64,000 bases of DNA from an uncultured Clostridia bacterium (lineage in GTDB: Bacteria; Bacillota; Clostridia; Christensenellales; UBA1242), in the NCBI GenBank assembly GCA_934747255.1, contig CAKVGH010000001.1:18023-82022 (forward strand), given 5' to 3'. A program made the position numbers and the translations under genes. Positions 2,962-55,418 of this stretch are shown in pieces. Position 1 is the first letter of the stretch; every line of letters begins with the position of its first letter. The notes under the pieces were generated by a model that saw only the letters and a list, made by a program, of their open reading frames with translations, did not search any database and was not told where the DNA came from.

Positions 2962-3360
2962 ATGAGTAGAAATTCACAGGCAAAAGCCTTAATTAAAGAA
3001 CTTGCAATGCAAGCAAAGGAAAGATTAAAAAATTCAAATTATTCGCAAATTGATGGAAGTTTTGGTTACAAAAAGCCATTTGATAGACGAAATTATAAAG
3101 TCCTATCAAAAATGGATTGCAAAAAGCCAGATATTACAATAAAAATTATTAACGATACCGTAGATGAAGAAAATTTTAACCGTAGAGTATACGCTCTTTT
3201 ACAAGAAAACGAAGATATTTCTAACCCACTTAACAAATTGATTGATAAGGAAGCATTTGATTCTTTTAGTGAATTTGAACAGGAAAAGTACATTTTGGAA
3301 CTTGCCGACAAATACACCAAAGCAAGAGAAAACTATCTGCAACAATCATCAGGTTGTTAA
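2962..3360 (+). CDS. hypothetical small charged protein
   Basis: AAGGAGAAAAATT-ATG RBS. No recognisable family. Confidence 0.4.
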   Translation: MSRNSQAKALIKELAMQAKERLKNSNYSQIDGSFGYKKPFDRRNYKVLSKMDCKKPDITIKIINDTVDEENFNRRVYALLQENEDISNPLNKLIDKEAFDSFSEFEQEKYILELADKYTKARENYLQQSSGC

Positions 3361-3913: not shown

Positions 3914-3996
3914 TGGTGCGGATGAAGGGACTTGAACCCCCAAGGTTTCCCGCTAGATCCTAAGTCTAGTGCGTCTGCCAATTTCGCCACATCCGC
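3914..3996 (-). tRNA. tRNA-Leu(UAG), CCA encoded
   Basis: Hand-folded cloverleaf: GCGGATG acceptor, anticodon loop CTTAGGA, long variable arm, GGTTCAAGTCC T-arm. Confidence 0.85.
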
Positions 3997-4042
3997 ATAA
4001 AATAAATGTTCCATTCCGCAAATACTAGGGAACGGAACACTT

Positions 4043-4118
4043 TGGTGACCCATCGGGGATTCGAACCCCGGACAACCGGATTAAAAGTCAGGTGCTCTAC
4101 CAGCTGAGCTAATGAGTC
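4043..4118 (-). tRNA. tRNA-Lys(UUU), CCA encoded
   Basis: GACTCATTAGCTCAGCTGGTAGAGC..., anticodon loop ACTTTTAAT, GGTTCGAATCC T-arm. Confidence 0.85.
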
Positions 4119-4212
4119 ATAGTTGACAACTATATTATTATATTGAAATAATTTACAGTTGTCAATGTTTTTTCAAAAAAATTTCAAATAGGTGTTATAG
4201 CAATTACGCTAA

Positions 4213-4287
4213 TGGTTGGGGTGGCAAGATTTGAACTTACGCGTGAGGGAGTCAAAGTCCCTTGCCTTACCGCTTGGCTACACCCCA
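4213..4287 (-). tRNA. tRNA-Gln(UUG), CCA encoded
   Basis: TGGGGTGTAGCCAAGCGGTAAGGC..., anticodon loop CTTTGAC, AGTTCAAATCT T-arm. Confidence 0.85.
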
Positions 4288-4303
4288 TCAGGCCTATTTG
4301 AAA

Positions 4304-4380
4304 TGGTGCGTTTGAAGAGATTCGAACTCCCGACCCTCGCCTTAGAAGGGCGATGCTCTATCCAACTGAGCTACAAACGC
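4304..4380 (-). tRNA. tRNA-Arg(UCU), CCA encoded
   Basis: GCGTTTGTAGCTCAGTTGGATAGAGC..., anticodon loop CTTCTAA, AGTTCGAATCT T-arm. Confidence 0.85.
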
Positions 4381-4387
4381 ATAATAT

Positions 4388-4461
4388 TGGAGCGGGTGAT
4401 GGGAATCGGACCCACGCAGCCAGCTTGGAAGGCTGGAACTCTACCACTGAGCTACACCCGC
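4388..4461 (-). tRNA. tRNA-Gly(UCC), CCA encoded
   Basis: GCGGGTGTAGCTCAGTGGTAGAG..., anticodon loop CTTCCAA, GGTCCGATTCC T-arm. Confidence 0.85.
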
Positions 4462-4471
4462 AACGCAATTT

Positions 4472-4500
4472 AATATATCACAAAACAATCAATATGTCAA
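4472..4500 (-). promoter_or_regulatory. sigma-A-type promoter for the Gly-Arg-Gln-Lys-Leu tRNA operon
   Basis: On the minus strand: TTGACA, 17 nt, TATATT, ending 11 nt before the tRNA-Gly 5' end. Confidence 0.55.
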
Positions 4501-4662
4501 CTATAAATTTTTGAATATTAAAAAAAATTTTGAAAAATATTATTATCAAAAAGCAAAAATATTATTTGCAAATATTAAAATGCAAAGCATATCAAATCAA
4601 TGTTAAAAAAACGCTTGAAAAATCTATAATAATATGCTAAACTTTTGAAGTTTGATAAATAT

Positions 4663-4738
4663 GCTCTCGTCGTCTAGTGGCCTAGGACGCTGGCCTCTCA
4701 CGCCGGTAACACGGGTTCGAGTCCCGTCGAGAGTACCA
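4663..4738 (+). tRNA. tRNA-Glu(CUC), CCA encoded
   Basis: GCTCTCGTCGTCTAGTGGCCTAGGAC..., anticodon loop CTCTCAC, GGTTCGAGTCC T-arm, G1-U72 wobble. Confidence 0.8.
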
Positions 4739-4741
4739 AAC

Positions 4742-4796
4742 AAAAACCATCAGTGCGATAGTGCAAATTGCAATTATTCATCGCTGATGGTTTTTT
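4742..4796 (+). terminator. rho-independent terminator after tRNA-Glu
   Basis: A long hairpin (CCATCAG...CTGATGG with inner GCGAT/ATCGC pairing) followed by TTTTTT. Confidence 0.7.
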
Positions 4797-4994
4797 ATGC
4801 TTTGAAATTTTTTACGATATACATTTTTTTTATCAATTACTTTTTTACTCTTAAAAAATTGCTTTTTTTATCTAATACAAAATATGCACAAATTATTGAA
4901 ACCAAAACTATTGCTGAAATAATAACGGCACTTAAATTTGTTAAAACTCTTTCAATTAGATATTCAAGTGCTATTTTACGAAATATCAAAAAAA

Positions 4995-5727: not shown

Positions 5728-6918
5728 TTAGTTTTGTGTAACTGTATTGTTTTGTGATGCAACTTTTCCTAAACCACCGCTTAATGTAACATTATTGAGT
5801 GAAACAGTTGCGTACGAAACTGCCGTTTGTCCTTCCTTGTAGGTTGAAACTTCTTCAACGCCGTAGCCATTTACACTACTAAAACTTCCGCCATTAACAG
5901 TTATGTTTAATGTTTTTTTGTAGCCTACTGCTGAATCAACAATCAATGCACTACCTGTTGGTTCTGCACCATTGCCGTTATATTTTGGAGCACTATATGT
6001 TCCAGTCGCTGTAACAGTACAATTATCTAAAACATAAGTACCACTCTTTGTATAAATTCCAGAGCCACCATTAAATGTGCAATTTGTAAAAGAATAGTTT
6101 GCATTAGATGCCAAATATACACCAAGATTTTCTTCTCCGCCTTCCATTACAACATTTTGGAAAGTGAATTTTGCTCCTTCACAAGAGCCATTTGTATAAA
6201 AGCCACCATAGTAACCATAAAGTTTTACATCTTGAACAGTAATGTCCAAATTATCTTTTCCATTTGCCATTAGTCCATAATAGCAACCATCTTTATCTGT
6301 TTTAGAGCCAATCGAGCCAGTTTTTTTACTGTCTTTAACTGTTGCTTTAATACCATATTCAAAGTAAACATTAGTTTTGTTTACCAATCCATAAGTACAA
6401 AGATTTAATTCTTCTTCGATATTATGTCCATTAAGGTCAAGCACAAAATCGTATGCTCTTAAAACACTCTTTACTGTGATATCACCATTGTATGCGCCAT
6501 CTGTGTAACCTGCAATATTTTCATAAAGCACGATTTCGTTAGCCACTTCAAAAGCATTAAGTAGTTCTGCTCTTGTTCTTACAGCAAGAGAGTATGTACC
6601 ACTATTATTGACAACTCCTTCGCCAGACAACTTACCTTGCACCATAAGTGTACCATTGTTTGTAATTGTTCCAGCATTTGTTAAAGTTACATCTTGTTTG
6701 ATAGTTACTATAACATCGCTAGCAATTTCCAACTTTTCACCACTAGGAATTTCCATGTTAGATACAACTACAATATCTTTGTTGTTCGCATTTGCTAATG
6801 CACCTTTTAATTCTTCAAATGTTGTTACTTGAAGCTTTGCATTTCCACAAGCAACCAAGCAAAGTGATGACAACACTAATACAAGTATGCTTGCAAACGC
6901 AAGAAATTTCTTTTTCAT
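5728..6918 (-). CDS. secreted lipoprotein with beta-helix-like N/G/T-rich repeats
   Basis: Signal peptide plus lipobox MKKKFLAFASILVLVLSSLCLVAC-GN; repetitive NxG/TxT-rich body; GGAGG RBS. Confidence 0.55.
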   Translation of the reverse strand: MKKKFLAFASILVLVLSSLCLVACGNAKLQVTTFEELKGALANANNKDIVVVSNMEIPSGEKLEIASDVIVTIKQDVTLTNAGTITNNGTLMVQGKLSGEGVVNNSGTYSLAVRTRAELLNAFEVANEIVLYENIAGYTDGAYNGDITVKSVLRAYDFVLDLNGHNIEEELNLCTYGLVNKTNVYFEYGIKATVKDSKKTGSIGSKTDKDGCYYGLMANGKDNLDITVQDVKLYGYYGGFYTNGSCEGAKFTFQNVVMEGGEENLGVYLASNANYSFTNCTFNGGSGIYTKSGTYVLDNCTVTATGTYSAPKYNGNGAEPTGSALIVDSAVGYKKTLNITVNGGSFSSVNGYGVEEVSTYKEGQTAVSYATVSLNNVTLSGGLGKVASQNNTVTQN

Positions 6919-42084: not shown

Positions 42085-42160
42085 CGCGGGGTGGAGCAGC
42101 TGGCAGCTCGTCGGGCTCATAACCCGAAGGTCGATAGTTCGAGTCTATCCCCCGCAACCA
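42085..42160 (+). tRNA. initiator tRNA-fMet(CAU), CCA encoded
   Basis: C1-A72 mismatch, three consecutive G-C pairs closing the anticodon stem (GGG/CCC), anticodon CAT. Confidence 0.85.
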
Positions 42161-42372: not shown

Positions 42373-44508
42373 TTGTTCGATAGTGAATTGTACGAATGGG
42401 AATGTTCTGATATTATTATGTTTTGTGATTATCTTACTTCTTTTGAAAGTTTAAAAATCGATGATTTCATAAATCAATTCGAATACATCAATCAAATAGC
42501 ATTTAATTGGAGCAATTTTGAAAGAAAAAGTTTTTACAGGGCTTTTTTTGAACAAATATATCACATCAATTGTGATAGCATACTTTCTTTTATTAATGGG
42601 CTAAATGATTTTTCTCTCAAAAATAAATTTAATATCTTGGCAAACGAAAATTTTTCAAAGAACAATTTTTCAGCTATTATAGAAATAATATCTTATCTAT
42701 TTTGTGACTTACCATACTTCCTACTCTCCTATTCGGACGATATTTTAGATTTTATTTATATCTCATTAAAACAAAGTTCAGCTTATACAAAGTTTTCTAA
42801 AAACAAAGTTTCAATAAATGAATATGAACCAATTATGCTTTTTTTAGAAAAGTTTTTATTAAAAAATCTTAATGATTTTAATTTTTGTTTTAATAATCAA
42901 ATGAATCAATCAGAAATTAATAGTTTTTCTTGGAACTCAATTTCCAAAGGACTCTCTTGTTTGTATTATTATAAAAACACACTTGGTAATGAAAATGAAT
43001 GCTTTTCTTTATCAAATGTAAAAAATATCATTGCATGTAAACAAAATCTTGGAGACTTATCACTGGACGAATTTTTATACAATTTAATATTAAATGGAAG
43101 AAAAGATATTTTTGAAGAATTATTAAATATTATTATTTTTAATCCTAAAGAGTTTTTAGAATGTTTTACGCATTGTTATAAATTATATGAAATAACCTGC
43201 ATTCCCGACAAAACACTTGCTTTGTTTATAAAAAATAAAACACTATTTACTGTAAATTATAAATTAAAGTGTGAATTCTTTTTGGATAGAGTTAAATCTT
43301 TAGCCTTCGATATTCAAAAAATAAATAAAAATCTTATTAATAAAATTGTTACAAATAGCTTATGGTTGATTGAATTAATTAAAAAATGTATTGATATATA
43401 TAATATCGAAAAAACAAATAAATGCATAAAATTTATCACTTACTTCGAAAGACGCTATACTGAAAATTCATTAGTAAAAGATAATAATAAAAAATACACA
43501 CTAGATATTGATAGTTTATACAACAAAGAAGAAATACATTCGTTTACTGAATCCTTAACAACTGATAGAATGGAAAAAGAAATATTTAATAAATTATTAA
43601 CTCTTAACAATTTTCCTATTAATACTGGATTTAATTACTCATTCAACTACATACTTTACCCTTTTAATAAATGTAGTTTTGAAATAAATGATGAAGATGG
43701 TACAAGTACAGACGAAATTGAGTTGAAAGACTATTTACTTAAACAAAATATTAATTTAACAAATTTAGACTATTCATATATAAGAACAATATGGAATGAG
43801 TATGATGATATTTTTAACTTACAGAATAATAGTGATTTCAGAAAAATTTTTAACAACACAATACATCTGGATTTAACGGAATTATGTACAAATATTATAT
43901 CATTAAATGATTATTCAGAAAAAATAGAAATAGAAAATAAAAATCGTGCTTTTCAAAAGATTTTGCCATATTTATATAACGATATATTAAAAAATAATTC
44001 TAACCTATTTAGATTAATTGATAAAAATCAAATTATAATAAATATGTTTGCCACTAGTGAATTTTTATTAAAATCCCAACAAAATCCAAATAAGATTATT
44101 GAAAGCGATTTAACATTTATAGCAGTAAATTCGATAAAAGCAACAGAACTATTTTTTGAAAGTACAATAAATTTTATTGTAAATAATAATTCTAAACACA
44201 TAAAAAATCTGTATATTAAAAATATAAAAGGAGATTTTGTTAACATTAAAAATAGTTCTTGGAGTGAGAAGTGTACAATTGGAAATATGCATATTTATCT
44301 TTCTAAAAATATTTTTGAAGGCAATATTAAAAAACAAGATTTAGATGAATTTAATAAGTTAACTCAAAATTGGATTAACACAATTAGAAATGATTATCTA
44401 CATAAAAAACGAATCAATAACATTACAATCACAAATGACTGTATAAACACATCTATGGAAGTAATTAATAAAGTTTTAATGTTAGTGAAAAAATTAATTA
44501 AAAGTTAA
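42373..44508 (+). CDS. large, very AT-rich hypothetical protein with a C-terminal HEPN-like Rx4H motif (start uncertain)
   Basis: 711 aa, rich in N/I/K/F. WINTIRNDYLHKKR lies 34 aa from the C-terminus (R-N-x-x-x-H, as in many HEPN RNase families). No RBS at the TTG track start. Confidence 0.4.
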   Translation: MFDSELYEWECSDIIMFCDYLTSFESLKIDDFINQFEYINQIAFNWSNFERKSFYRAFFEQIYHINCDSILSFINGLNDFSLKNKFNILANENFSKNNFSAIIEIISYLFCDLPYFLLSYSDDILDFIYISLKQSSAYTKFSKNKVSINEYEPIMLFLEKFLLKNLNDFNFCFNNQMNQSEINSFSWNSISKGLSCLYYYKNTLGNENECFSLSNVKNIIACKQNLGDLSLDEFLYNLILNGRKDIFEELLNIIIFNPKEFLECFTHCYKLYEITCIPDKTLALFIKNKTLFTVNYKLKCEFFLDRVKSLAFDIQKINKNLINKIVTNSLWLIELIKKCIDIYNIEKTNKCIKFITYFERRYTENSLVKDNNKKYTLDIDSLYNKEEIHSFTESLTTDRMEKEIFNKLLTLNNFPINTGFNYSFNYILYPFNKCSFEINDEDGTSTDEIELKDYLLKQNINLTNLDYSYIRTIWNEYDDIFNLQNNSDFRKIFNNTIHLDLTELCTNIISLNDYSEKIEIENKNRAFQKILPYLYNDILKNNSNLFRLIDKNQIIINMFATSEFLLKSQQNPNKIIESDLTFIAVNSIKATELFFESTINFIVNNNSKHIKNLYIKNIKGDFVNIKNSSWSEKCTIGNMHIYLSKNIFEGNIKKQDLDEFNKLTQNWINTIRNDYLHKKRINNITITNDCINTSMEVINKVLMLVKKLIKS

Positions 44509-44532: not shown

Positions 44533-44937
44533 ATGGAACAAAAGAGAATTATTGCGGTGGCTGGAATTATTGAAGGTGCTGACGGAAAAATTTTATGCAC
44601 ACAAAGAGATAAAAGCAAAAATGATGAAGTATCATTTAAGTGGGAGTTTCCCGGTGGAAAAATGGAATATGGCGAAACAGCCAAGCAAACAATCGCCCGA
44701 GAATTAAAAGAAGAATTGGACATTGATGTGATAGTTGAAAACCTATATTACACTGTCGAATTTGACTACCCTAATTTTCATTTATCAATGCCTGTTTACA
44801 AATGCAAAATGTTGAGCAAAAACTACAAGCTTAATGTACACAAAAGTGCAATGTGGTTAGAAAAATCCAAGATTTTAAGTCTAGACTGGGCACCAGCAGA
44901 TTTATTGATAGCAAAGCAGATACTAAAACAAGGCTAG
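44533..44937 (+). CDS. Nudix hydrolase (MutT/CTP-pyrophosphohydrolase-like)
   Basis: Canonical Nudix box GKMEYGETAKQTIARELKEELDI. AAGGA RBS. Confidence 0.8.
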   Translation: MEQKRIIAVAGIIEGADGKILCTQRDKSKNDEVSFKWEFPGGKMEYGETAKQTIARELKEELDIDVIVENLYYTVEFDYPNFHLSMPVYKCKMLSKNYKLNVHKSAMWLEKSKILSLDWAPADLLIAKQILKQG

Positions 44938-45252: not shown

Positions 45253-45284
45253 ACAACAAAAAACACTACTTTAAGAAAGTGTGT
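45253..45284 (-). terminator. terminator of the MoxR-vWA operon
   Basis: On the minus strand: CACAC(T)TTCTTAAAGTAGTG hairpin followed by TTTTTG. Confidence 0.5.
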
Positions 45285-45386: not shown

Positions 45387-46634
45387 TTATTGCACAAGAG
45401 TTTCGCTATCATTGTTTGAGTCATCTTTATTACTTTCGTCTTTTGTATGTTTGTTGTTTTTCTTTTCCAATGCTTTTTTTATCAATTTATCTCTATATAT
45501 TTCAGCAGGTGACTTTCCATAATCTATTTCTTCTTGCGTCTTATATTGAAGAGATAATTCTTCTAGTTCTTGTGCTGTTTTAACAGTAAATGCCTCGGTT
45601 AAAAAATTATCTTCTTCAAAATCTACATTTAGTTTTGTTGGTTTAGTTTGCAAAGCAGTATTATTCAAGGTATCGGTTTTTATGTTTTGTCCATTAAGAT
45701 AACTTAAAATTAAGTTATTTTGCCAAAAATCATCGTTTGCGTTTTCAAGGTTAGTAACAAATGGAATACCAGAAATTAAGCCGTTTTTTGCTTGAACTTT
45801 TATCTTAAAATGACGCTTAAAATTTTTTTGAATTGCTATTTGAGTTTCATCAACATTCAAAACTTTCCATTTGATTGGCTCAACTTTTACCCATAAATAA
45901 TCGCCTTCTACATTATTTAACAAATTGCCGTCACACAAATTTCTGTCTATGTTATTCAACTCTTTATCTGTACGATTTATTCTTGTTCTAACATACAATT
46001 TTTTGTCATAAACAAATTCTTCGTTTTTAATAAATCTGGAAATTTTTTTATCAAAATAGCCTAGATATGTTTTGCCTGTTGCAACCAAAATGTTTGACTT
46101 GTAAAGTTGTTCCAATCTTTTATTAAAATTTTTACCAACATAGTTTGAAGGAAACTCTCCCACTTCAATATAATAGTAGTCTTTTCCCATTTCGTCAACG
46201 CCAGTTCTTAACTGCTTATCAAGTGGTCCGCCAAATTTTATTAAGCCTTCAATATCAAAACTAGCTCGCGGAACTATTGTGAGTGAGTTCCTATCTATTG
46301 AGTCCCAATTGATTAGTGAATGACCAAAGTTGTTTGTAGATTGAACTAATCTGCCAAACCCTTCGGTACATTTATACATAAAGAAACTTTGAATAGGATA
46401 AAAGCAAAATCTATTTTGATGATAAAATGGATTTTCTAATGCAAAAGCACCACAACATAAAGCATAATCGTTGGCTATAATTACTTTCATTTGAGGCTCT
46501 TTTTGAGAATCAATCTCTTTTAGAGTTGGTAAATGAAACAAATTTTCAGTTTTTATATGTCTTGTTTTGCCTTCGTTCAAAATACAAATTTCATTTTCAG
46601 TAACTTTTATTATCTCTCGTAAATCGACTGACAT
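45387..46634 (-). CDS. hypothetical 415-aa protein, last gene of the MoxR-vWA operon
   Basis: GGAGG RBS, 64 nt after the vWA gene stop. No recognisable catalytic motif. K/D/E/N-rich tail. Confidence 0.45.
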   Translation of the reverse strand: MSVDLREIIKVTENEICILNEGKTRHIKTENLFHLPTLKEIDSQKEPQMKVIIANDYALCCGAFALENPFYHQNRFCFYPIQSFFMYKCTEGFGRLVQSTNNFGHSLINWDSIDRNSLTIVPRASFDIEGLIKFGGPLDKQLRTGVDEMGKDYYYIEVGEFPSNYVGKNFNKRLEQLYKSNILVATGKTYLGYFDKKISRFIKNEEFVYDKKLYVRTRINRTDKELNNIDRNLCDGNLLNNVEGDYLWVKVEPIKWKVLNVDETQIAIQKNFKRHFKIKVQAKNGLISGIPFVTNLENANDDFWQNNLILSYLNGQNIKTDTLNNTALQTKPTKLNVDFEEDNFLTEAFTVKTAQELEELSLQYKTQEEIDYGKSPAEIYRDKLIKKALEKKNNKHTKDESNKDDSNNDSETLVQ

Positions 46635-46698
46635 TTCGCCTCCTGTTAATAATTATTGAAACATTTTATCATTAAAATTTTTTCTTACATAATATAAT

Positions 46699-48246
46699 TT
46701 ACATTGTAAGTTGTTCATCGTCTTCTAATTTGGTTTTTTTCTTAAAATCCATAATGTCTTGTGGGTCAACAAATATAACTTTTCCATTGTCTGGGTGAAA
46801 ATGTGGATTTTGAAAAGATACCCAAATTATATCTTTTCGTGGATTTACAATACCAGCATCGCCACCGTCTTGACCATCTGTAAAACATATTTTGTTAATA
46901 TTTTTATCTTTTGAAAATGACTTACTTGCAACATCAAAATTTGTTCCGCCATAAATACTTATTCTTAAATTATCAATATCTTTTTCGGTTTTGATTTCCT
47001 GAAAACCTGAAAAGTCATCAGCAAAGAATCCTACTTTGATTTTTGAATTTTTTAAGATAGTTTTTACTTGTCTTAAAAATGCTCGCAACAATTCTTCACT
47101 AACCGAACCACTGACATCAAGAATAATCTCGGTTTCTGCTTGCTCATCATATTCATAATCTTCAATTCGCATAGCATAGTTATTATCTTTTGATGAGAAC
47201 TTTCTGCCCCATCTTTCGTCTTCTATTTCCAACTCTTTTTTCAATCTTCTTTTCCAGTTATAAACTGCTTTTGATGCACTTCCAACTGGTCCTAATGCTT
47301 CATCTATGCCAGCATTACCGCCATCTCCATTGTTTCTAATGTTTTCTTGAAGTTGCTCTTTAATTCTCTTTGCCAAAGCCTTTCTTTCTTGACGGTTTTT
47401 ATCGAACTCTTTTTTCTCGTCAATATTTTCACTTTCGCCTTGTTTTTTATCTTTGCCGTCTTTTGCTTGTTGGTCTTGATTTGCTCCCGATGAAGATTGC
47501 TCTTTATTAGGTTGTTTTTTATCAGCATCATCTTTTTGTTTTGATGATTTATTATCTGCATTTGCAGATTTTTCGTTCTTCTCTTTTTCAGCTTGCTTTT
47601 CGGCTTCTTCTACTGCCTTTTTCCACATATCGTGAGAAGGATAATTTTTGTTTTTATTATCATCATTTTGATTTTGGTCAGCAGATTGATTACCACCATT
47701 TTGATTTTGTTGTTGATTATTATTTTGATTTTGTTGACTTCCACTTTGATTAGAGTTTGATTGTCCACCTTGCGATTGTTGTTGATTGTTTTGATTAGAG
47801 TCATTAGACTGGTTTATCTTTTGTTCTTCTTGCTTCTTTTTTTCTTCTTCTAAAAGTTTGTTATAATATTGTTCGGCATTATAATTTATCGCATCTTCAA
47901 AATCTACCCCGCCTTCTACAAATGGCAAATTGTCTTTTTTGAGTTGTTGATTTATAACAGCATCGGTTGCTATATTCCACAAATATCCGTCTCTGTCTTT
48001 ACTTCTTAAAATATGATTAAAAGCAATATGACACACTTCGTGAGCAAATATAAAAATTTGTTCATCATTAGTTAACGACTGCATAAATTGTTCATTAAAG
48101 TAGATAGTTTTTCCGTCTGTTCCAGCAGTAGGTACTGAATCATTTGCAACTTGATATTTAACCTTGTTTATTACCGAACCAAAATAAGGATACTTAATAA
48201 GTAACCTTTTTTTGATTGCGTCAATATCTAACTTTGGTGAGTCCAT
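46699..48246 (-). CDS. HExxH metallopeptidase-like domain + Q/N-rich linker + vWA domain protein (DUF2201-like architecture)
   Basis: N-terminal FAHEVCHIAFNH (HExxH), about 170 aa of low complexity, C-terminal MIDAS-like ILDVSGSVS...GGTNF. Confidence 0.6.
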   Translation of the reverse strand: MDSPKLDIDAIKKRLLIKYPYFGSVINKVKYQVANDSVPTAGTDGKTIYFNEQFMQSLTNDEQIFIFAHEVCHIAFNHILRSKDRDGYLWNIATDAVINQQLKKDNLPFVEGGVDFEDAINYNAEQYYNKLLEEEKKKQEEQKINQSNDSNQNNQQQSQGGQSNSNQSGSQQNQNNNQQQNQNGGNQSADQNQNDDNKNKNYPSHDMWKKAVEEAEKQAEKEKNEKSANADNKSSKQKDDADKKQPNKEQSSSGANQDQQAKDGKDKKQGESENIDEKKEFDKNRQERKALAKRIKEQLQENIRNNGDGGNAGIDEALGPVGSASKAVYNWKRRLKKELEIEDERWGRKFSSKDNNYAMRIEDYEYDEQAETEIILDVSGSVSEELLRAFLRQVKTILKNSKIKVGFFADDFSGFQEIKTEKDIDNLRISIYGGTNFDVASKSFSKDKNINKICFTDGQDGGDAGIVNPRKDIIWVSFQNPHFHPDNGKVIFVDPQDIMDFKKKTKLEDDEQLTM

Positions 48247-48254
48247 ATTTTCTC

Positions 48255-48638
48255 CTAATCAATAATTTTGCAATATGCTTTAATGTTTTGATTAACCTTT
48301 TTTATATCGCTTGCTAAAACGATAATCTTGCACTCTTTTGGTAGTGCGACTCCACTGATAGTTTTGTACTTGATAAGTTCGTAAAACTTTTCTTGATTGT
48401 ACTCATCAACACTATCAATTTTATCAATAACAATAGTTTTACTTGCTCCATTTTTTACTATATCGTAAAACCATTTTGGTGATTTTAAGCCTTCTTTTTG
48501 TGCGGTTATTCCAAGGTCATAAGAATTTAGCGTTGCAGGTAAAATTGTGGCTGAATCGAAATCTTCCTTTTTTAATTTTGTAGTTAGTATTACAGAATTT
48601 GTTGCGTCATTTAATATCTCTAACACATTATTTAACAT
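48255..48638 (-). CDS. small AAA-like protein lacking Walker A (degenerate half-ATPase)
   Basis: TIVIDKIDSVDEYNQEKFYELIKYKTISGVALPKECKIIVLASD parallels the Walker-B/sensor region of the upstream ATPase (VLFIDELTNVKPTVQSLIYSIV...LPDNAVVIGAGN). The start overlaps the ATPase stop (AAGGAG-atgtca-ATG). Confidence 0.45.
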   Translation of the reverse strand: MLNNVLEILNDATNSVILTTKLKKEDFDSATILPATLNSYDLGITAQKEGLKSPKWFYDIVKNGASKTIVIDKIDSVDEYNQEKFYELIKYKTISGVALPKECKIIVLASDIKKVNQNIKAYCKIID

Positions 48639-49692
48639 TGACATCTCCTTCATCTTCCATAATTCCAGCAATTAACAATGCTCTATCGTCATTTTCTCCA
48701 ATCCAAGTCAAATCAAATTGAGCAAGTACTTCTTCGCCCAAGTATTTTTTAACAAATACTCTTACTGGTTTAATTTGTTTTTCATTCGCATCAGTTAGTG
48801 CCATTGCTGTTGCAATTTTTTTATCTACGCCCATTTGAACCAATCTATTTTTATCATAGTTTTTATTTAAGACATCTTCAACTGACAATGGTATTTCCTT
48901 AACATATTGAACGAAATCAGCAGTCAACTCTGCACCGATAGCCATTAAAAGACTGTTTGGATTTTTGGTTGCATACAAAAGATGGCTTGCAATTTCCCAT
49001 TTTCTAGGGTCAACGCAAATTTTTGGTTCATCTTCATCATAGTCACTATATAAGACATTTTCTCCCCTAGACCTAATATAACTATAAATTGCTGGGTGCA
49101 ATTTTTTGCTTGGTTTTTCGCTAACTTCTATTTCTTCTGCCTTTGATGTATCGCTTATATCATTTGCCCAGTTAAGAAAATCAGCAACATTTACTTCGTA
49201 GTAAATATGGCAAAATCTTCTATACAAAGCACCTGTCAATGGGTATGCTGCACTTACATCAGCCGCTTCGTTACCTGCACCAATAACAACCGCGTTGTCT
49301 GGAAGTGGCCAAAGACCATCTTTTCCTTTTCTGTCCAAAACAATAGAATAAATCAAACTTTGAACTGTTGGTTTTACATTGGTCAACTCATCGATAAATA
49401 ACACATGCATTTTATTTGGTTCATCTTTGCACTTTTTTACCAACTGTGTGTACCAAAGTGGTGGAATATACTCCCCTGTTTCACGATTCAAAACACCGTC
49501 TATTTCTTCTGGGTTCATTTGTGGTCTTAAAGTAATAAAGGTTGCTGTTGGGTCAATTTGTCTTACTCTCGAAGATTTACCAACACCACTAGGTCCGTGA
49601 AGGAAAACGCTGACATTTGCTTTAACACAATCTAAAAGCATTTGGTCGTTTGTTAAAGGCTTAAAATTAAAATTATATGGATTATTTTTCAT
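48628..49692 (-). CDS. MoxR/AAA_5-like AAA+ ATPase
   Basis: Walker A LHGPSGVGKS, Walker B VLFIDELT, sensor GAGNEA, arginine YRRF. Start refined to MKNNPYNF after AAGGAGAAAAGTT. Confidence 0.7.
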   Translation of the reverse strand: MKNNPYNFNFKPLTNDQMLLDCVKANVSVFLHGPSGVGKSSRVRQIDPTATFITLRPQMNPEEIDGVLNRETGEYIPPLWYTQLVKKCKDEPNKMHVLFIDELTNVKPTVQSLIYSIVLDRKGKDGLWPLPDNAVVIGAGNEAADVSAAYPLTGALYRRFCHIYYEVNVADFLNWANDISDTSKAEEIEVSEKPSKKLHPAIYSYIRSRGENVLYSDYDEDEPKICVDPRKWEIASHLLYATKNPNSLLMAIGAELTADFVQYVKEIPLSVEDVLNKNYDKNRLVQMGVDKKIATAMALTDANEKQIKPVRVFVKKYLGEEVLAQFDLTWIGENDDRALLIAGIMEDEGDVNVK

Positions 49693-49891
49693 AACTTTTC
49701 TCCTTACGCTTAATAATAACATAAATGTTATTTATTTTCAATACTTTTGAAAAAATTGTTGCTTTCTTTTTTTATTGCATTATAAAAAACAGTATCAATT
49801 AGTTTTGATACCATTTTTTATCTTAAAAATTAAAAGGAGCAATAATGAGTTTAATTAAGAAATTTCATAAAGATTCTAGCACAAAAACTGA

Positions 49892-50899
49892 TTATTCTAG
49901 CGGAGAAATATTGACTATTTTTTCGTTTTGAATATCAATTAAATATGTTTTTACCTTTTCCTTTTTGCTATCTACTAGTGTAACTGTGTTTTGATTAAAC
50001 AAATGACTTAAATCATATACTTCGTCAAAATCGCCAAAATATTGCGACAAATGATTTTGACTAATTTTGTTTGAAAGTTCTTGCGATAAATATTGCTTGC
50101 AAAGAGAAAGATTTTTTACTCTCGCACTTTCAAAAAAAGCAAGTTTAGTCAATTTAGTATTATATAAGATTTTTGGCGAGTTTTTTAGGTAAACCGCATA
50201 TTCTTCTGCTAACACCAATTTATCGTTTGATAATTGATACTTTTTGACAAGTCCTTGTTTTTGCATACTTGCAAACTTTGTAAGTGATAAAAAGCCTTGT
50301 GTAGTCTGTTCAATTGAAGTAATATCATCTTCCAAAATAATTTCATTTTGCTCATTGAGTACTATTAAATGATTTTTATCGCCAGCAAAAAGTTCAAAAA
50401 ATATCAAGTTGTTATGCGATGTAACACTTGCTCGATTACAAATAAGGTTTCTAGTGATAATAGTTTCTCCACCACAGATTATGTTTAATTTTTCGTCTTG
50501 ATATACTTCGTAATCATTAAAAAGAGTGCTTATTTTATCAAGCGTAACCATTGATGAAACAAACTGTTTTTTGTATAGTCTTAACAAGTAATTTTGCCTA
50601 TCTACTCTATAAAGTTTTGCAAAAACATTGTTTGAATTAAACTCATTAACATTGCTAGTCAAAGCAAATGAGTATTCACAAAGTCCGCCACAGCAAGTTG
50701 GACAGACTCTTAAAAAACTATCGTCTTGGCTCACACTAACATTATTTTCCATACCACTCTTAATTAAATAAGAGTTATTATCAACCATTAAGATGCAATC
50801 AAAATCACTAAAAATTATCAAATTCATATTCTGCCTCAAACTATTATATTCGTCAAAAAAGTATTTTATTTGCTGATTAAGATAAACCTTTAAGGACAA
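49892..50899 (-). CDS. hypothetical protein (start uncertain; CPTCCGGLC Cys cluster)
   Basis: Long ORF. The track start is TTG, only 20 nt from the divergent gene. An internal ATG (MNLIIFSD) is also plausible. Confidence 0.35.
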   Translation of the reverse strand: MSLKVYLNQQIKYFFDEYNSLRQNMNLIIFSDFDCILMVDNNSYLIKSGMENNVSVSQDDSFLRVCPTCCGGLCEYSFALTSNVNEFNSNNVFAKLYRVDRQNYLLRLYKKQFVSSMVTLDKISTLFNDYEVYQDEKLNIICGGETIITRNLICNRASVTSHNNLIFFELFAGDKNHLIVLNEQNEIILEDDITSIEQTTQGFLSLTKFASMQKQGLVKKYQLSNDKLVLAEEYAVYLKNSPKILYNTKLTKLAFFESARVKNLSLCKQYLSQELSNKISQNHLSQYFGDFDEVYDLSHLFNQNTVTLVDSKKEKVKTYLIDIQNEKIVNISPLE

Positions 50900-50919: not shown

Positions 50920-51780
50920 ATGAAATATAATTGGACAGATGCAGAAATAAAATCGCTATTTAATAAGGTAGAAGAATGTAAGAAAAATTCAAAGCCCGTT
51001 TTGGACGCTTTTTACTTTCACGCCAAAAAATATAGTCGTAAGCCACTTTCGGTACGGAATTTTTATTATCAAAAAATTGATGAGATAGTTGAAAACAAAA
51101 AGTTGCAAAAGCAACTTGCAATCAACATTAAACTTCACGAAAAAGATAATTACGCCAAGTTTGATGAACGCCAAACCGAAAAATTACTTGCGTTTATCAA
51201 ACAAAGACAAAAGGAAGGCAAATCAGTTAGGAGTGCGTGTATGGAACTATCAAACAATGATGCAACAAAACTTGTTAGGTTGCAAAATAAATTTAGAGCA
51301 GAACAATTAAAACTAAAAAAACAAAATGATATCGCAAAAAGCGAACTATCTTCTACTAGCAAAAATGTTAAGTCAAACGAGGTTTTTACCCCACTAGATG
51401 AAAATGCTAATTTAATAGCCAACAATGGCACAAAAAATTCCATACAAAACAATAATCAAAATGTAATATCTTTCCCCGTTGAAAACAAACTAACTCAAAC
51501 TCCACTAAACGATGCCGAAATTCAAAGTTTGTTTTTAGGACTTGTTAAACTAATCAAAAAAACAGCCAAACACAGTTTGGAACAAGAATTTCAAAAAGAA
51601 CGAGATAATTTTTCCGTTATAATTCGTGACAACGCAATAGAACTCGCTGGGAAAAGTGAAAAATTAGGGCAAGTGCTTTGCGAAAACGAAAAACTTTCAA
51701 AACAAGTGATTGACCTAAAACAAAAACTTGAACAATTACGAGCCGAATTTAGCCAAAAATTAAATTTAGAAAAAAATTAA
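50920..51780 (+). CDS. Myb/SANT-like (RsfA-type) N-terminal domain protein with a C-terminal coiled coil
   Basis: NWTDAEIKSLFNKVEE...AFYFHAKKYSRKPLSVRNFYYQKI resembles the W-x-x-x-E/L...R-N Myb-like pattern of RsfA-family regulators. GGAG RBS. Confidence 0.35.
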   Translation: MKYNWTDAEIKSLFNKVEECKKNSKPVLDAFYFHAKKYSRKPLSVRNFYYQKIDEIVENKKLQKQLAINIKLHEKDNYAKFDERQTEKLLAFIKQRQKEGKSVRSACMELSNNDATKLVRLQNKFRAEQLKLKKQNDIAKSELSSTSKNVKSNEVFTPLDENANLIANNGTKNSIQNNNQNVISFPVENKLTQTPLNDAEIQSLFLGLVKLIKKTAKHSLEQEFQKERDNFSVIIRDNAIELAGKSEKLGQVLCENEKLSKQVIDLKQKLEQLRAEFSQKLNLEKN

Positions 51781-54716: not shown

Positions 54717-55229
54717 TTAAACCCATTGTTCTACTTGTTCGTCATCAGCATAAGTTTTAATGCCAAAATGTTTTTGAGCAAGTTTAACTGCTTCCAAAAT
54801 TTGATTTTTACCAACATCGCCCCAACCTAAAAGTTTAATTGCTTGATTTGGAGTTGTAAAAAGTCTGTCGTAAGTATCCCCATTGTCTGGGTCAGGTTGT
54901 TTAACCCCCACTTTGTCCACTAACGCTGTCATACGCATTTGAGCATAAGGTGGCTTGCCATTTTCTTCATCAACTTCTTGGTAACCAACACTTATCAATT
55001 TTGACTGCAATGTGGTATTAAGCTCTTCCACCATTTCTCGTCTTAAAGTAGCGTCCCTGCTATCATCAAAATTTTCTGGTGTTCCGCCCCCAAACGAATA
55101 AACTCTTCTGTCTTTTTTGTTTTCAACCTTTAACAAAACCAAACCATCTGCATTGAAAACAATTCCGTAAACCTGAGTCACCTTTAAGTTTTGTGGTACA
55201 TTACCACTATGCCAAACAAATTTTGCCAT
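54717..55229 (-). CDS. Nudix-like hydrolase (box slightly degenerate)
   Basis: GGGTPENFDDSRDATLRREMVEEL. Start refined to MAKFVWHSG after AAAGGAGGGAAAAAGT. Confidence 0.5.
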   Translation of the reverse strand: MAKFVWHSGNVPQNLKVTQVYGIVFNADGLVLLKVENKKDRRVYSFGGGTPENFDDSRDATLRREMVEELNTTLQSKLISVGYQEVDEENGKPPYAQMRMTALVDKVGVKQPDPDNGDTYDRLFTTPNQAIKLLGWGDVGKNQILEAVKLAQKHFGIKTYADDEQVEQWV

Positions 55230-55418
55230 ACTTTTTCCCTCCTTTTTATTAACTTTAAGCAGTATAACAAAATATAAAATATTTTGCAATACTTAAATAA
55301 AAAAATAAACCTAGCCGTTTTATAAAAAATTTAATATAGTTTTGATTAAATTTGAATACTAAAATATATTTTATAAAAATAAAAAATCACTTATCATAAG
55401 ACAAAGTGATTTTTATAT

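Follow-up and report, generated by a model that had tools for sequence, protein, structure and literature searches.

A four-gene operon (genes A to D, in order of transcription) in a 64,000-nucleotide stretch of DNA from an uncultured Clostridia bacterium (Christensenellales, UBA1242; assembly GCA_934747255.1, contig CAKVGH010000001.1, positions 18,023 to 82,022 of the forward strand; this whole stretch is the window below) belongs to an apparently undescribed family of gene cassettes. Judged from sequence comparison, the canonical cassette encodes a DUF6273-like sensor followed in the same polypeptide by a conserved β-rich domain and a MoxR-like AAA_5 ATPase (A), a paralogue of the ATPase without a P-loop (B), and a zinc peptidase connected by a linker to a von Willebrand factor A (vWA) domain of the DUF2201 type (C). 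The operon of the window is an exception: its sensor (D) is split off and placed after C, and it has no diversity-generating retroelement (DGR) of the kind that targets the sensor in relatives. On balance, we lean towards a reading in which a ligand sensor in the cytoplasm gates an AAA+/vWA switch and, through it, would control the tethered metalloprotease, in a conflict (immune-type) role. A limited literature search (DUF2201; DGR with AAA_5 or ATPase plus vWA) returned no description of the cassette and mentioned DUF2201 only incidentally, in unrelated work; the DGR surveys consulted record N-terminal or internal variable regions and AAA-like targets in passing only, and do not describe the cassette.

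Sensor–ATPase cassettes and their retroelements in relatives

Hidden Markov models were built for A, B, C, D, the reverse transcriptase (RT) and an accessory protein encoded upstream, and 80 loci from GTDB representative genomes were scanned. In 52 of the 53 loci with a complete ATPase open reading frame (ORF), a module homologous to D is fused to the ATPase, with B and then C following; in one of these loci (L004), the D-like region forms the N-terminal half of an 883-aa protein and the ATPase its C-terminal half. Almost every related locus has B between its A and C genes. Because the D-type module is the N-terminal part of the ATPase in relatives, we regard D as functionally linked to A and, on the strength of this homology, as the detached sensor domain of the ATPase, remotely related to DUF6273. 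A itself lacks the module and begins at the NPY linker motif, so the split in the window operon falls exactly at the domain boundary between sensor and ATPase. An earlier note on this DNA, made from the sequence alone, had proposed surveying the gene neighbourhoods of homologues of the 415-aa protein D; the fusion came to light in the neighbourhoods of C homologues.

An RT gene lies directly upstream of the fused sensor–ATPase gene in 13 of the 42 loci with at least 2.5 kb of upstream sequence, accompanied by a 193-aa bAvd-like protein and a template repeat (TR) in an Avd–TR–RT cassette. In 14 independent loci (all of the DGR-linked loci examined), mismatches between the TR and the variable region (VR) fall almost only at TR adenines, as in L006 (17 of 18), L016 (23 of 25 substitutions), L059 (10 of 10), L067 (14 of 14) and L079 (12 of 12), and these 14 loci of relatives show the defining features of a DGR: RT, Avd and adenine-specific TR/VR mismatches. 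RT-linked L016 is a close relative of the window operon (48% identity in C). The VR is always located within the DUF6273-like stretch of the sensor, in the C-terminal part of the DUF6273 profile, and ends in an RPAL motif. When one element was compared between two metagenome samples (L010 and L011), 26 of the 43 differences in 12.8 kb were inside its two 80-nt VRs (positions noted: 3131–3163 and 6123–6165), a concentration that provides direct evidence of ongoing diversification in nature.

The same elements show further features. Another 16 of the differences between L010 and L011 cluster at 3939–4884, which may reflect exchange between two paralogous targets. In 6 of 12 ungapped TR/VR pairs (L018, L023, L024, L031, L054 and L062), and also in L008 (4205–4294), the TR carries one or two in-frame stops (TAA/TGA) in the target frame; at these places the cognate VRs carry stops in L018, L024 and L062 and sense codons in certain other loci, and in L006 a TAG has arisen from a TR AAA. 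As a faithful copy of such a TR would truncate the sensor–ATPase, adenine mutagenesis may act as its ON/OFF switch. All TRs end in RPD(L/S) where all VRs have RPAL.

Tandem arrays of sensor–ATPase paralogues, with several paralogues per B–C pair, occur in L038, L044, L057, L072 and L083, the array unit being present three times in L038 (5766–20062). These arrays look like germline-encoded sensor repertoires that replace the DGR. In some fusions without an RT (L004, L041, L052 and L080), the ATPase is followed by a C-terminal extension of approximately 130–230 aa with no Pfam match, exemplified by the last 133 aa of the 883-aa fusion (L004, 7187–7585).

The hosts, represented by metagenome-assembled genomes, are Clostridia, Bacilli, gut Alphaproteobacteria, Muribaculaceae/Bacteroides and Sphaerochaetaceae (Spirochaetota), and the chromosomal site of the cassette differs from genome to genome. 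From these comparisons, the family is widespread in gut bacteria and consists of horizontally spread, self-contained and predicted cytoplasmic cassettes. The parts of the cassette diverge at different rates, with identities to the nearest relatives of 59–63% for A, 47–54% for B, 46–51% for C and 25–35% for D; the sensor module evolves fastest.

The window operon and its four proteins

The operon spans 45387–49692 on the minus strand and consists of four intact, co-directional ORFs, the lengths of which agree with public gene calls on a conspecific contig (L002). The first two genes overlap by 11 nt, the gaps between B and C and between C and D measure 8 nt and 64 nt, and GGAG-type ribosome-binding sites precede all four genes. 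The GC content (0.29–0.35) is close to that of host genes; the window overall has about 0.31. No transmembrane or hydrophobic segment is predicted in A, B, C or D, and all four proteins, and hence the system, are therefore predicted to be cytoplasmic.

Gene A (48628–49692, minus strand, with its ATG at 49692) encodes a MoxR/NorQ-like AAA_5 ATPase of 354 aa. Its Walker A (GPSGVGKS, aa 33–40, 49573–49596), Walker B (VLFIDE, aa 97–102, 49387–49404), sensor-1 (AGN, aa 139–141, 49270–49278) and RR (YRRF, aa 157–160, 49213–49224) motifs are in place, and the catalytic motifs are conserved across the sensor–ATPase fusion homologues. The protein matches AAA_5 in Pfam (E = 3e-7, 30.9 bits against a cutoff of 22), and phmmer found nothing significant in the Protein Data Bank (PDB). 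In a Foldseek search with an AlphaFold (AF2) model (predicted local distance difference test (pLDDT) 85), NorQ came out on top (E = 4e-6), followed by McrB, CbbQ, dynein AAA modules and RavA, with MCM also among the matches, at TM-scores of only 0.3–0.4. Membership in the MoxR/McrB/dynein clade is firm; within it, the subfamily is divergent.

MoxR ATPases act on vWA partners, and A has such a partner in its own operon, as C carries the DxSxS...T...D signature of a metal-ion-dependent adhesion site (MIDAS). Gene C (46699–48246, minus strand) encodes a 515-aa protein with an N-terminal, minigluzincin-like zinc peptidase domain marked by HEVCH (HExxH; aa 69–73, 48028–48042), a low-complexity K/Q/N/E linker of 220 aa, 45% of which is K, Q or N (around 47212–47871), and a DUF2201 vWA domain with the motifs DVSGS (the MIDAS; aa 377–381, 47104–47118), GGTNF (aa 433–437, 46936–46950) and FTDG (aa 455–458, 46873–46884). 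It matches DUF2201_N (7e-30), DUF2201 (2e-10) and Peptidase_M48 (6e-5) in Pfam, with weaker similarity to SprT, and, among PDB profiles, the self-inhibiting minigluzincin MJ1213 (4.6e-5). His69, Glu70, His73, His78 and Asp95 do not vary among 13 diverse homologues, and neither do the five MIDAS positions. Having the HExxH motif, the downstream ligands and the profile similarity of gluzincins and minigluzincins, the N-terminal domain is a predicted peptidase.

Between them, gene B (48255–48638, minus strand) encodes a 127-aa degenerate paralogue of the AAA+ core of A. It retains SPKW (PxW), the Walker-B-like VIDKID and the sensor-1-like VLASD, but neither P-loop nor lid. Pfam has no family that matches B, and BLASTP against A finds nothing; the homology is visible by profile–profile comparison only, in which hhalign aligned the B-family profile (68 homologues) to the AAA core of the A family over 108 columns (probability 96.8%, E = 2.5e-10).

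Gene D (45387–46634, minus strand) encodes a detached sensor module of 415 aa, comprising a DUF6273-like part (aa 1–126), a conserved core with WVKVEPIKW and WQNN..LSYLNG motifs (aa ~150–355) and a charged helical tail (aa 355–415). Neither a transmembrane segment nor a signal peptide was found in it. Aligned with the VRs of relatives, residues 93–126 (46257–46358, minus strand; FGRLVQSTNNFGHSLINWDSIDRNSLTIVPRASF) are their equivalent. A word-indexed search returned only three homologues and an exhaustive search of the representative library 290. D itself falls below the DUF6273 threshold and matches no Pfam family; among its homologues, 18 of 51 match DUF6273 (PF19789; best 1e-13), their N-terminal ~120 aa aligning to profile positions 53–171. 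The WQNS..LNG segment at the C terminus of some homologues maps to positions ~17–94, which hints at a permuted or interrupted DUF6273 domain in the D family; we do not claim that D is circularly permuted with respect to DUF6273, for which the support is weak. The AF2 model of D is confident (pLDDT 84, predicted template modelling score 0.84), and no match to D turned up in 50,697 phage genomes searched by tblastn.

Stand-alone genes like D, encoding about 400 aa, recur as a subfamily and are in some cases arranged in tandem. On metagenomic contigs such as L100 (1–1723) and L102 (1–2884), two to three stand in a row, and those of L100–L102 share the charged C-terminal tail with D of the window; these contigs are short, and linkage to A–B–C is not visible on them.

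The operon is probably its own transcription unit, since it has a promoter-like site of its own and the upstream 335-aa gene is closed by a hairpin and T-run (~49795–49830). The promoter-like site (49713–49741, minus strand; TTGAAA, a 17-nt spacer and an extended −10, TG-TATTAT) sits 5′ of the AAGGAG ribosome-binding site and ATG of gene A; it is a consensus match only, and such matches are no more frequent in this AT-rich region than in shuffled sequence. At the other end, the putative terminator (45253–45284, minus strand) is a weak 9-bp imperfect hairpin followed by UUUUUUGUUG, with a folding energy of −6.4 kcal/mol and a z-score of 0.07 against shuffles; it is plausible in an AT-rich genome and unsupported, the terminator scan not having called it.

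Much of the description in the earlier note is borne out by these results: the four tightly coupled minus-strand genes lie where it placed them; A is a MoxR/AAA_5-type ATPase with intact Walker and sensor motifs; B is an AAA-like fragment lacking a P-loop; and C joins an HExxH metallopeptidase-like domain through a Q/N-rich linker to a vWA domain with a DxSGS MIDAS. The profile searches that it had suggested assign C to the DUF2201 families and A to AAA_5. Its claim that the operon has its own terminator fares poorly. For D, the strong ribosome-binding site stands; the idea of a separate protein of unknown kind gives way to a homologue of the ATPase-fused sensor module.

The window copy, its surroundings and alternative explanations

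The 64-kb window contains neither an ORF for an RT or Avd nor a TR-like repeat. The VR-equivalent of D is not hypervariable: across seven variants, 2 of 37 strain-variable positions fall in its 34 residues, with about 3 expected by chance. The WLRS and RPAL motifs that scaffold the VR are degenerate in D. Together, these observations identify the window copy as a fixed-specificity, split version of the cassette. Sequence alone would allow a DGR beyond the window to act in trans; the lack of variability in D argues against it.

The same features could be those of a decaying relic, in which loss of the DGR and fission of the sensor–ATPase left an inert operon, the more so as the split architecture is seen in at most 1 of 53 comparable loci. 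We consider this highly improbable. The four ORFs and their catalytic and MIDAS motifs are intact and are preceded by strong ribosome-binding sites and a promoter-like site, the fission falls exactly at a domain boundary, stand-alone D-like genes recur elsewhere and the D model is confident. Moreover, four to six further strain variants of each protein were found in independent samples, all but one full length. Being intact and conserved across samples, the window copy is probably functional.

The window reads as low-GC chromosome of a spore-forming, Clostridia-like bacterium, with SecA, NrdD/NrdG, ArgS, Hsp20 and GerA/B/C genes in the flanks and ten tRNA genes in the window. This setting, together with the host-like GC content and the missing DGR, would suit a housekeeping chaperone pair of the NorQ–NorD, CbbQ–CbbO or RavA–ViaA type with D as a client adaptor, as would the nearness of the A model to NorQ, CbbQ and RavA and the complete MIDAS in C. 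Such a role nevertheless seems distinctly improbable to us. Among a sample of 148 neighbour proteins of 65 loci, which contain 200 Pfam families with helix–turn–helix regulators the commonest (6), no client enzyme recurs beside the cassette, and NorQD-type maturation of a neighbouring enzyme was rejected on this ground; each genome also has the cassette at a chromosomal site of its own. An adaptor that is hypermutated by a DGR, or that is only 25–35% identical between relatives, does not fit easily with a fixed client, and a conserved HExxH peptidase is not part of the known MoxR–vWA chaperones.

A different alternative is that the module serves a phage or other mobile element, in replication-associated remodelling, host takeover, superinfection exclusion or counter-defence, and that the window holds remnant cargo near a tRNA-Met gene. 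A and C match phage protein families (phrog_1297, E = 1e-39; phrog_1314, E = 4e-56), and in 447 phage records, mostly N4-like, a C homologue stands beside an AAA ATPase and a helicase. Two of the related cassettes (L006 and L007) stand next to genes for an SNF2 helicase, a primase and an HNH protein, another (L010) is near an integrase and PemK, the IMG/VR contig L093 carries a whole DGR cassette, and the window has the tRNA-Met gene and a low-GC orphan near the operon. Against this, the phage homologues are distant (~30% identity) and lack B and D; with the patterns used, one close match was found in 2.9 million viral contigs; no integrase, no att-like repeat of the tRNA-Met and no phage genes around the operon were found in the window; and most loci are in ordinary chromosomal contexts. 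We think a mobile-element role unlikely, if still worth keeping in mind. A role as phage structural or assembly genes was rejected, as no such context was seen among the neighbours of relatives or the phage homologues; neither of the two contexts that the earlier note had named as contrary to its proposal, a conserved client enzyme or a phage structural setting, was thus encountered. The DUF2201 peptidase–vWA protein is labelled 'HNH endonuclease' in PHROG 1314 and in many RefSeq phage records, such as L001 (Kosakonia phage Kc283, 14114–15286); by domain content, this is a propagated misannotation.

The earlier note had also placed the operon in a defence island with a HEPN-like orphan. The neighbour in question, a 711-aa orphan ORF (42373–44508, plus strand) directly after tRNA-Met (42085–42160), has no match in Pfam, PADLOC, PHROGs or NCBIfam, and the island finds no backing there. 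With a GC content of 0.218, compared with ~0.31 for the window, it is the only GC anomaly near the operon; an RNDYLH (Rx4H) motif near its C terminus is compatible with the HEPN idea and unverified. Immediately downstream of it and convergent with the operon is a NUDIX hydrolase gene (44533–44937, plus strand), and a second lies at 54717–55289 (minus strand). Between the operon and Hsp20, two divergent ORFs (49892–50899, minus strand, 335 aa; 50920–51780, plus strand, 286 aa) have no family match, and neither recurs beside the cassette elsewhere.

A proposed sensor-gated protease and its relation to known systems

The nearest described relatives by concept are the MoxR–vWA–VMAP conflict systems (Kaur et al. 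2020, PMC7159879; Doré et al. 2024, PMC10907252). Lectin sensors diversified by a DGR are known from MoxR–vWA conflict systems; the DGR-linked examples have been described mainly in multicellular bacteria, with the variable lectin at the C terminus of the vWA protein (PMC7159879, PMC10907252). Shared with the cassette are the pair of a MoxR-type AAA+ ATPase and a MIDAS vWA protein, a DGR-hypermutated module of lectin fold (putative in the cassette) in many loci, peptidase effectors and a predicted sensor-gated NTPase switch. The differences are substantial: VMAP is absent here, B being an additional AAA paralogue without a P-loop and D a DUF6273-related sensor; the vWA domain is of the DUF2201 type and is fused to a gluzincin-like peptidase; the VR is N-terminal, DUF6273-like and on the ATPase, whereas the published VRs are C-terminal FGS/CLec domains on the vWA protein; a DGR is missing from the window copy; and the cassette is hosted by unicellular gut anaerobes as opposed to cyanobacteria, actinobacteria and other multicellular bacteria. 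An assignment of the operon as a MoxR–vWA–VMAP ternary system was rejected, given the missing VMAP, the other vWA type and the sensor on the ATPase.

The mechanical precedent is provided by NorQ–NorD, CbbQ–CbbO and RavA–ViaA (PMC13036017, PMC9976466), the ATPases of which are the best structural matches to A. Like C, the partner protein in these pairs runs from an N-terminal domain through a linker to a C-terminal vWA domain, and the ring remodels the linker of its partner. In NorQD, the hexamer takes up a finger of the vWA domain in its pore, and hydrolysis of ATP leads to remodelling of the linker that joins the NorD N-terminal domain to the vWA domain (PMC13036017). These pairs differ in that they mature a fixed neighbouring enzyme (cNOR, Rubisco or Frd/LdcI) and have no peptidase, lectin sensor, DGR or degenerate AAA partner, and they share no phmmer similarity with A. 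McrBC likewise combines an AAA_5-class motor bearing an N-terminal target-recognition domain with an effector on a partner protein, and McrB is among the top Foldseek matches of A; the likeness is at the level of the fold only, McrB being a GTPase that senses modified DNA and McrC a nuclease, with no vWA domain, peptidase or lectin.

DUF6273 itself is a lectin-like, N-terminally variable domain of phage tentaclins and of other gut-phage DGR targets (PMC10743442, PMC11792537). As in those proteins, the VR of the cassette is carried by an N-terminal, putatively lectin-like module, drawn from the same gene pool of gut Firmicutes and their phages. Tentaclins, however, continue into immunoglobulin (Ig)-like domains and are virion or adhesin proteins, whereas the module here leads on to a conserved β-rich domain and an AAA+ ATPase, has a predicted cytoplasmic location and, in D, scores below the Pfam threshold. 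D was accordingly rejected as a tentaclin: it has no Ig or fibronectin type III (Fn3) match, and an AAA ATPase follows the module in relatives.

From the linker remodelling in NorQD, the equal layout of C, with the peptidase in the position of the N-terminal domain, and the fusion of sensor and ATPase, we propose the following chain of events. The sensor (D, acting in trans in the window copy) would recognize a ligand inside the cell, most plausibly one that belongs to an invader. Once ligand is bound, the A ring would be licensed to assemble or to hydrolyse ATP, and B would serve as its non-catalytic AAA partner. The A ring would then engage the vWA domain of C and pull or twist the long linker, as in NorQ–NorD, and this remodelling would relieve autoinhibition of the tethered metallopeptidase, the candidate effector; the outcome would probably be growth arrest or abortive infection. 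We favour a conflict role because of the DGR hypermutation in relatives, the paralogue arrays, the horizontal spread, the predicted cytoplasmic location and the fast divergence of the sensor, in keeping with the logic proposed for DGR-linked MoxR–vWA systems (PMC7159879, PMC10907252).

Several points weigh against this reading. The DGR, the strongest conflict signature, is borrowed from relatives and is not a property of the window copy, which has neither the retroelement nor a hypervariable sensor. The D model gave no Foldseek match at an E value of 0.001 or better in the PDB and BFVD, and its lectin fold is suggested by the remote DUF6273 similarity of homologues, not by D itself. The order of sensor, ATPase, vWA domain and protease is drawn solely by analogy. 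In PADLOC-DB 2.0.0, B, C and D have no match and A reaches only 0.025 to a candidate model, so that nothing falls below E = 0.01; an NCBIfam scan of all components gave nothing useful, and defence-type matches among the neighbours of the 65 loci are sparse and scattered. The A and C homologues of N4-like phages are encoded near each other in the early/replication region, near a helicase, a setting in which a defence role is unlikely. The phage-defence role of the family is thus one that we infer. As to the earlier note, its general idea of an NTPase–vWA conflict module with a variable partner holds up and gains from the DGR-targeted sensor on the ATPase of relatives; its anti-phage function was not corroborated by the defence-system check that it had suggested, PADLOC having matched no defence model.

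More tentatively, and as a possibility that we hold with less than even confidence, the cassettes may represent an undescribed class of intracellular immune receptors of gut commensals, in which a receptor of lectin fold controls a MoxR-like motor, and this motor in turn sets free a metalloprotease tethered to a vWA domain; the receptor would be diversified somatically by a DGR or in the germline by paralogue arrays or detached sensor genes. If true, unicellular bacteria would possess an anticipatory, antibody-like arm of sensing that is connected to a protease as its effector. New with respect to the described DGR–MoxR–vWA systems would be the sensor on the ATPase, the inactive AAA partner and the vWA-tethered protease as candidate effector. 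Should the model be right, the cassette would offer a compact four-gene system in which the coupling of a hypervariable receptor to an AAA+ switch could be tested, with the window copy as a natural control that has a fixed, trans-acting sensor, and would provide a functional context for the uncharacterized Pfam families DUF2201 and DUF2201_N, to which more than 2,000 proteins among the candidates scored belong.

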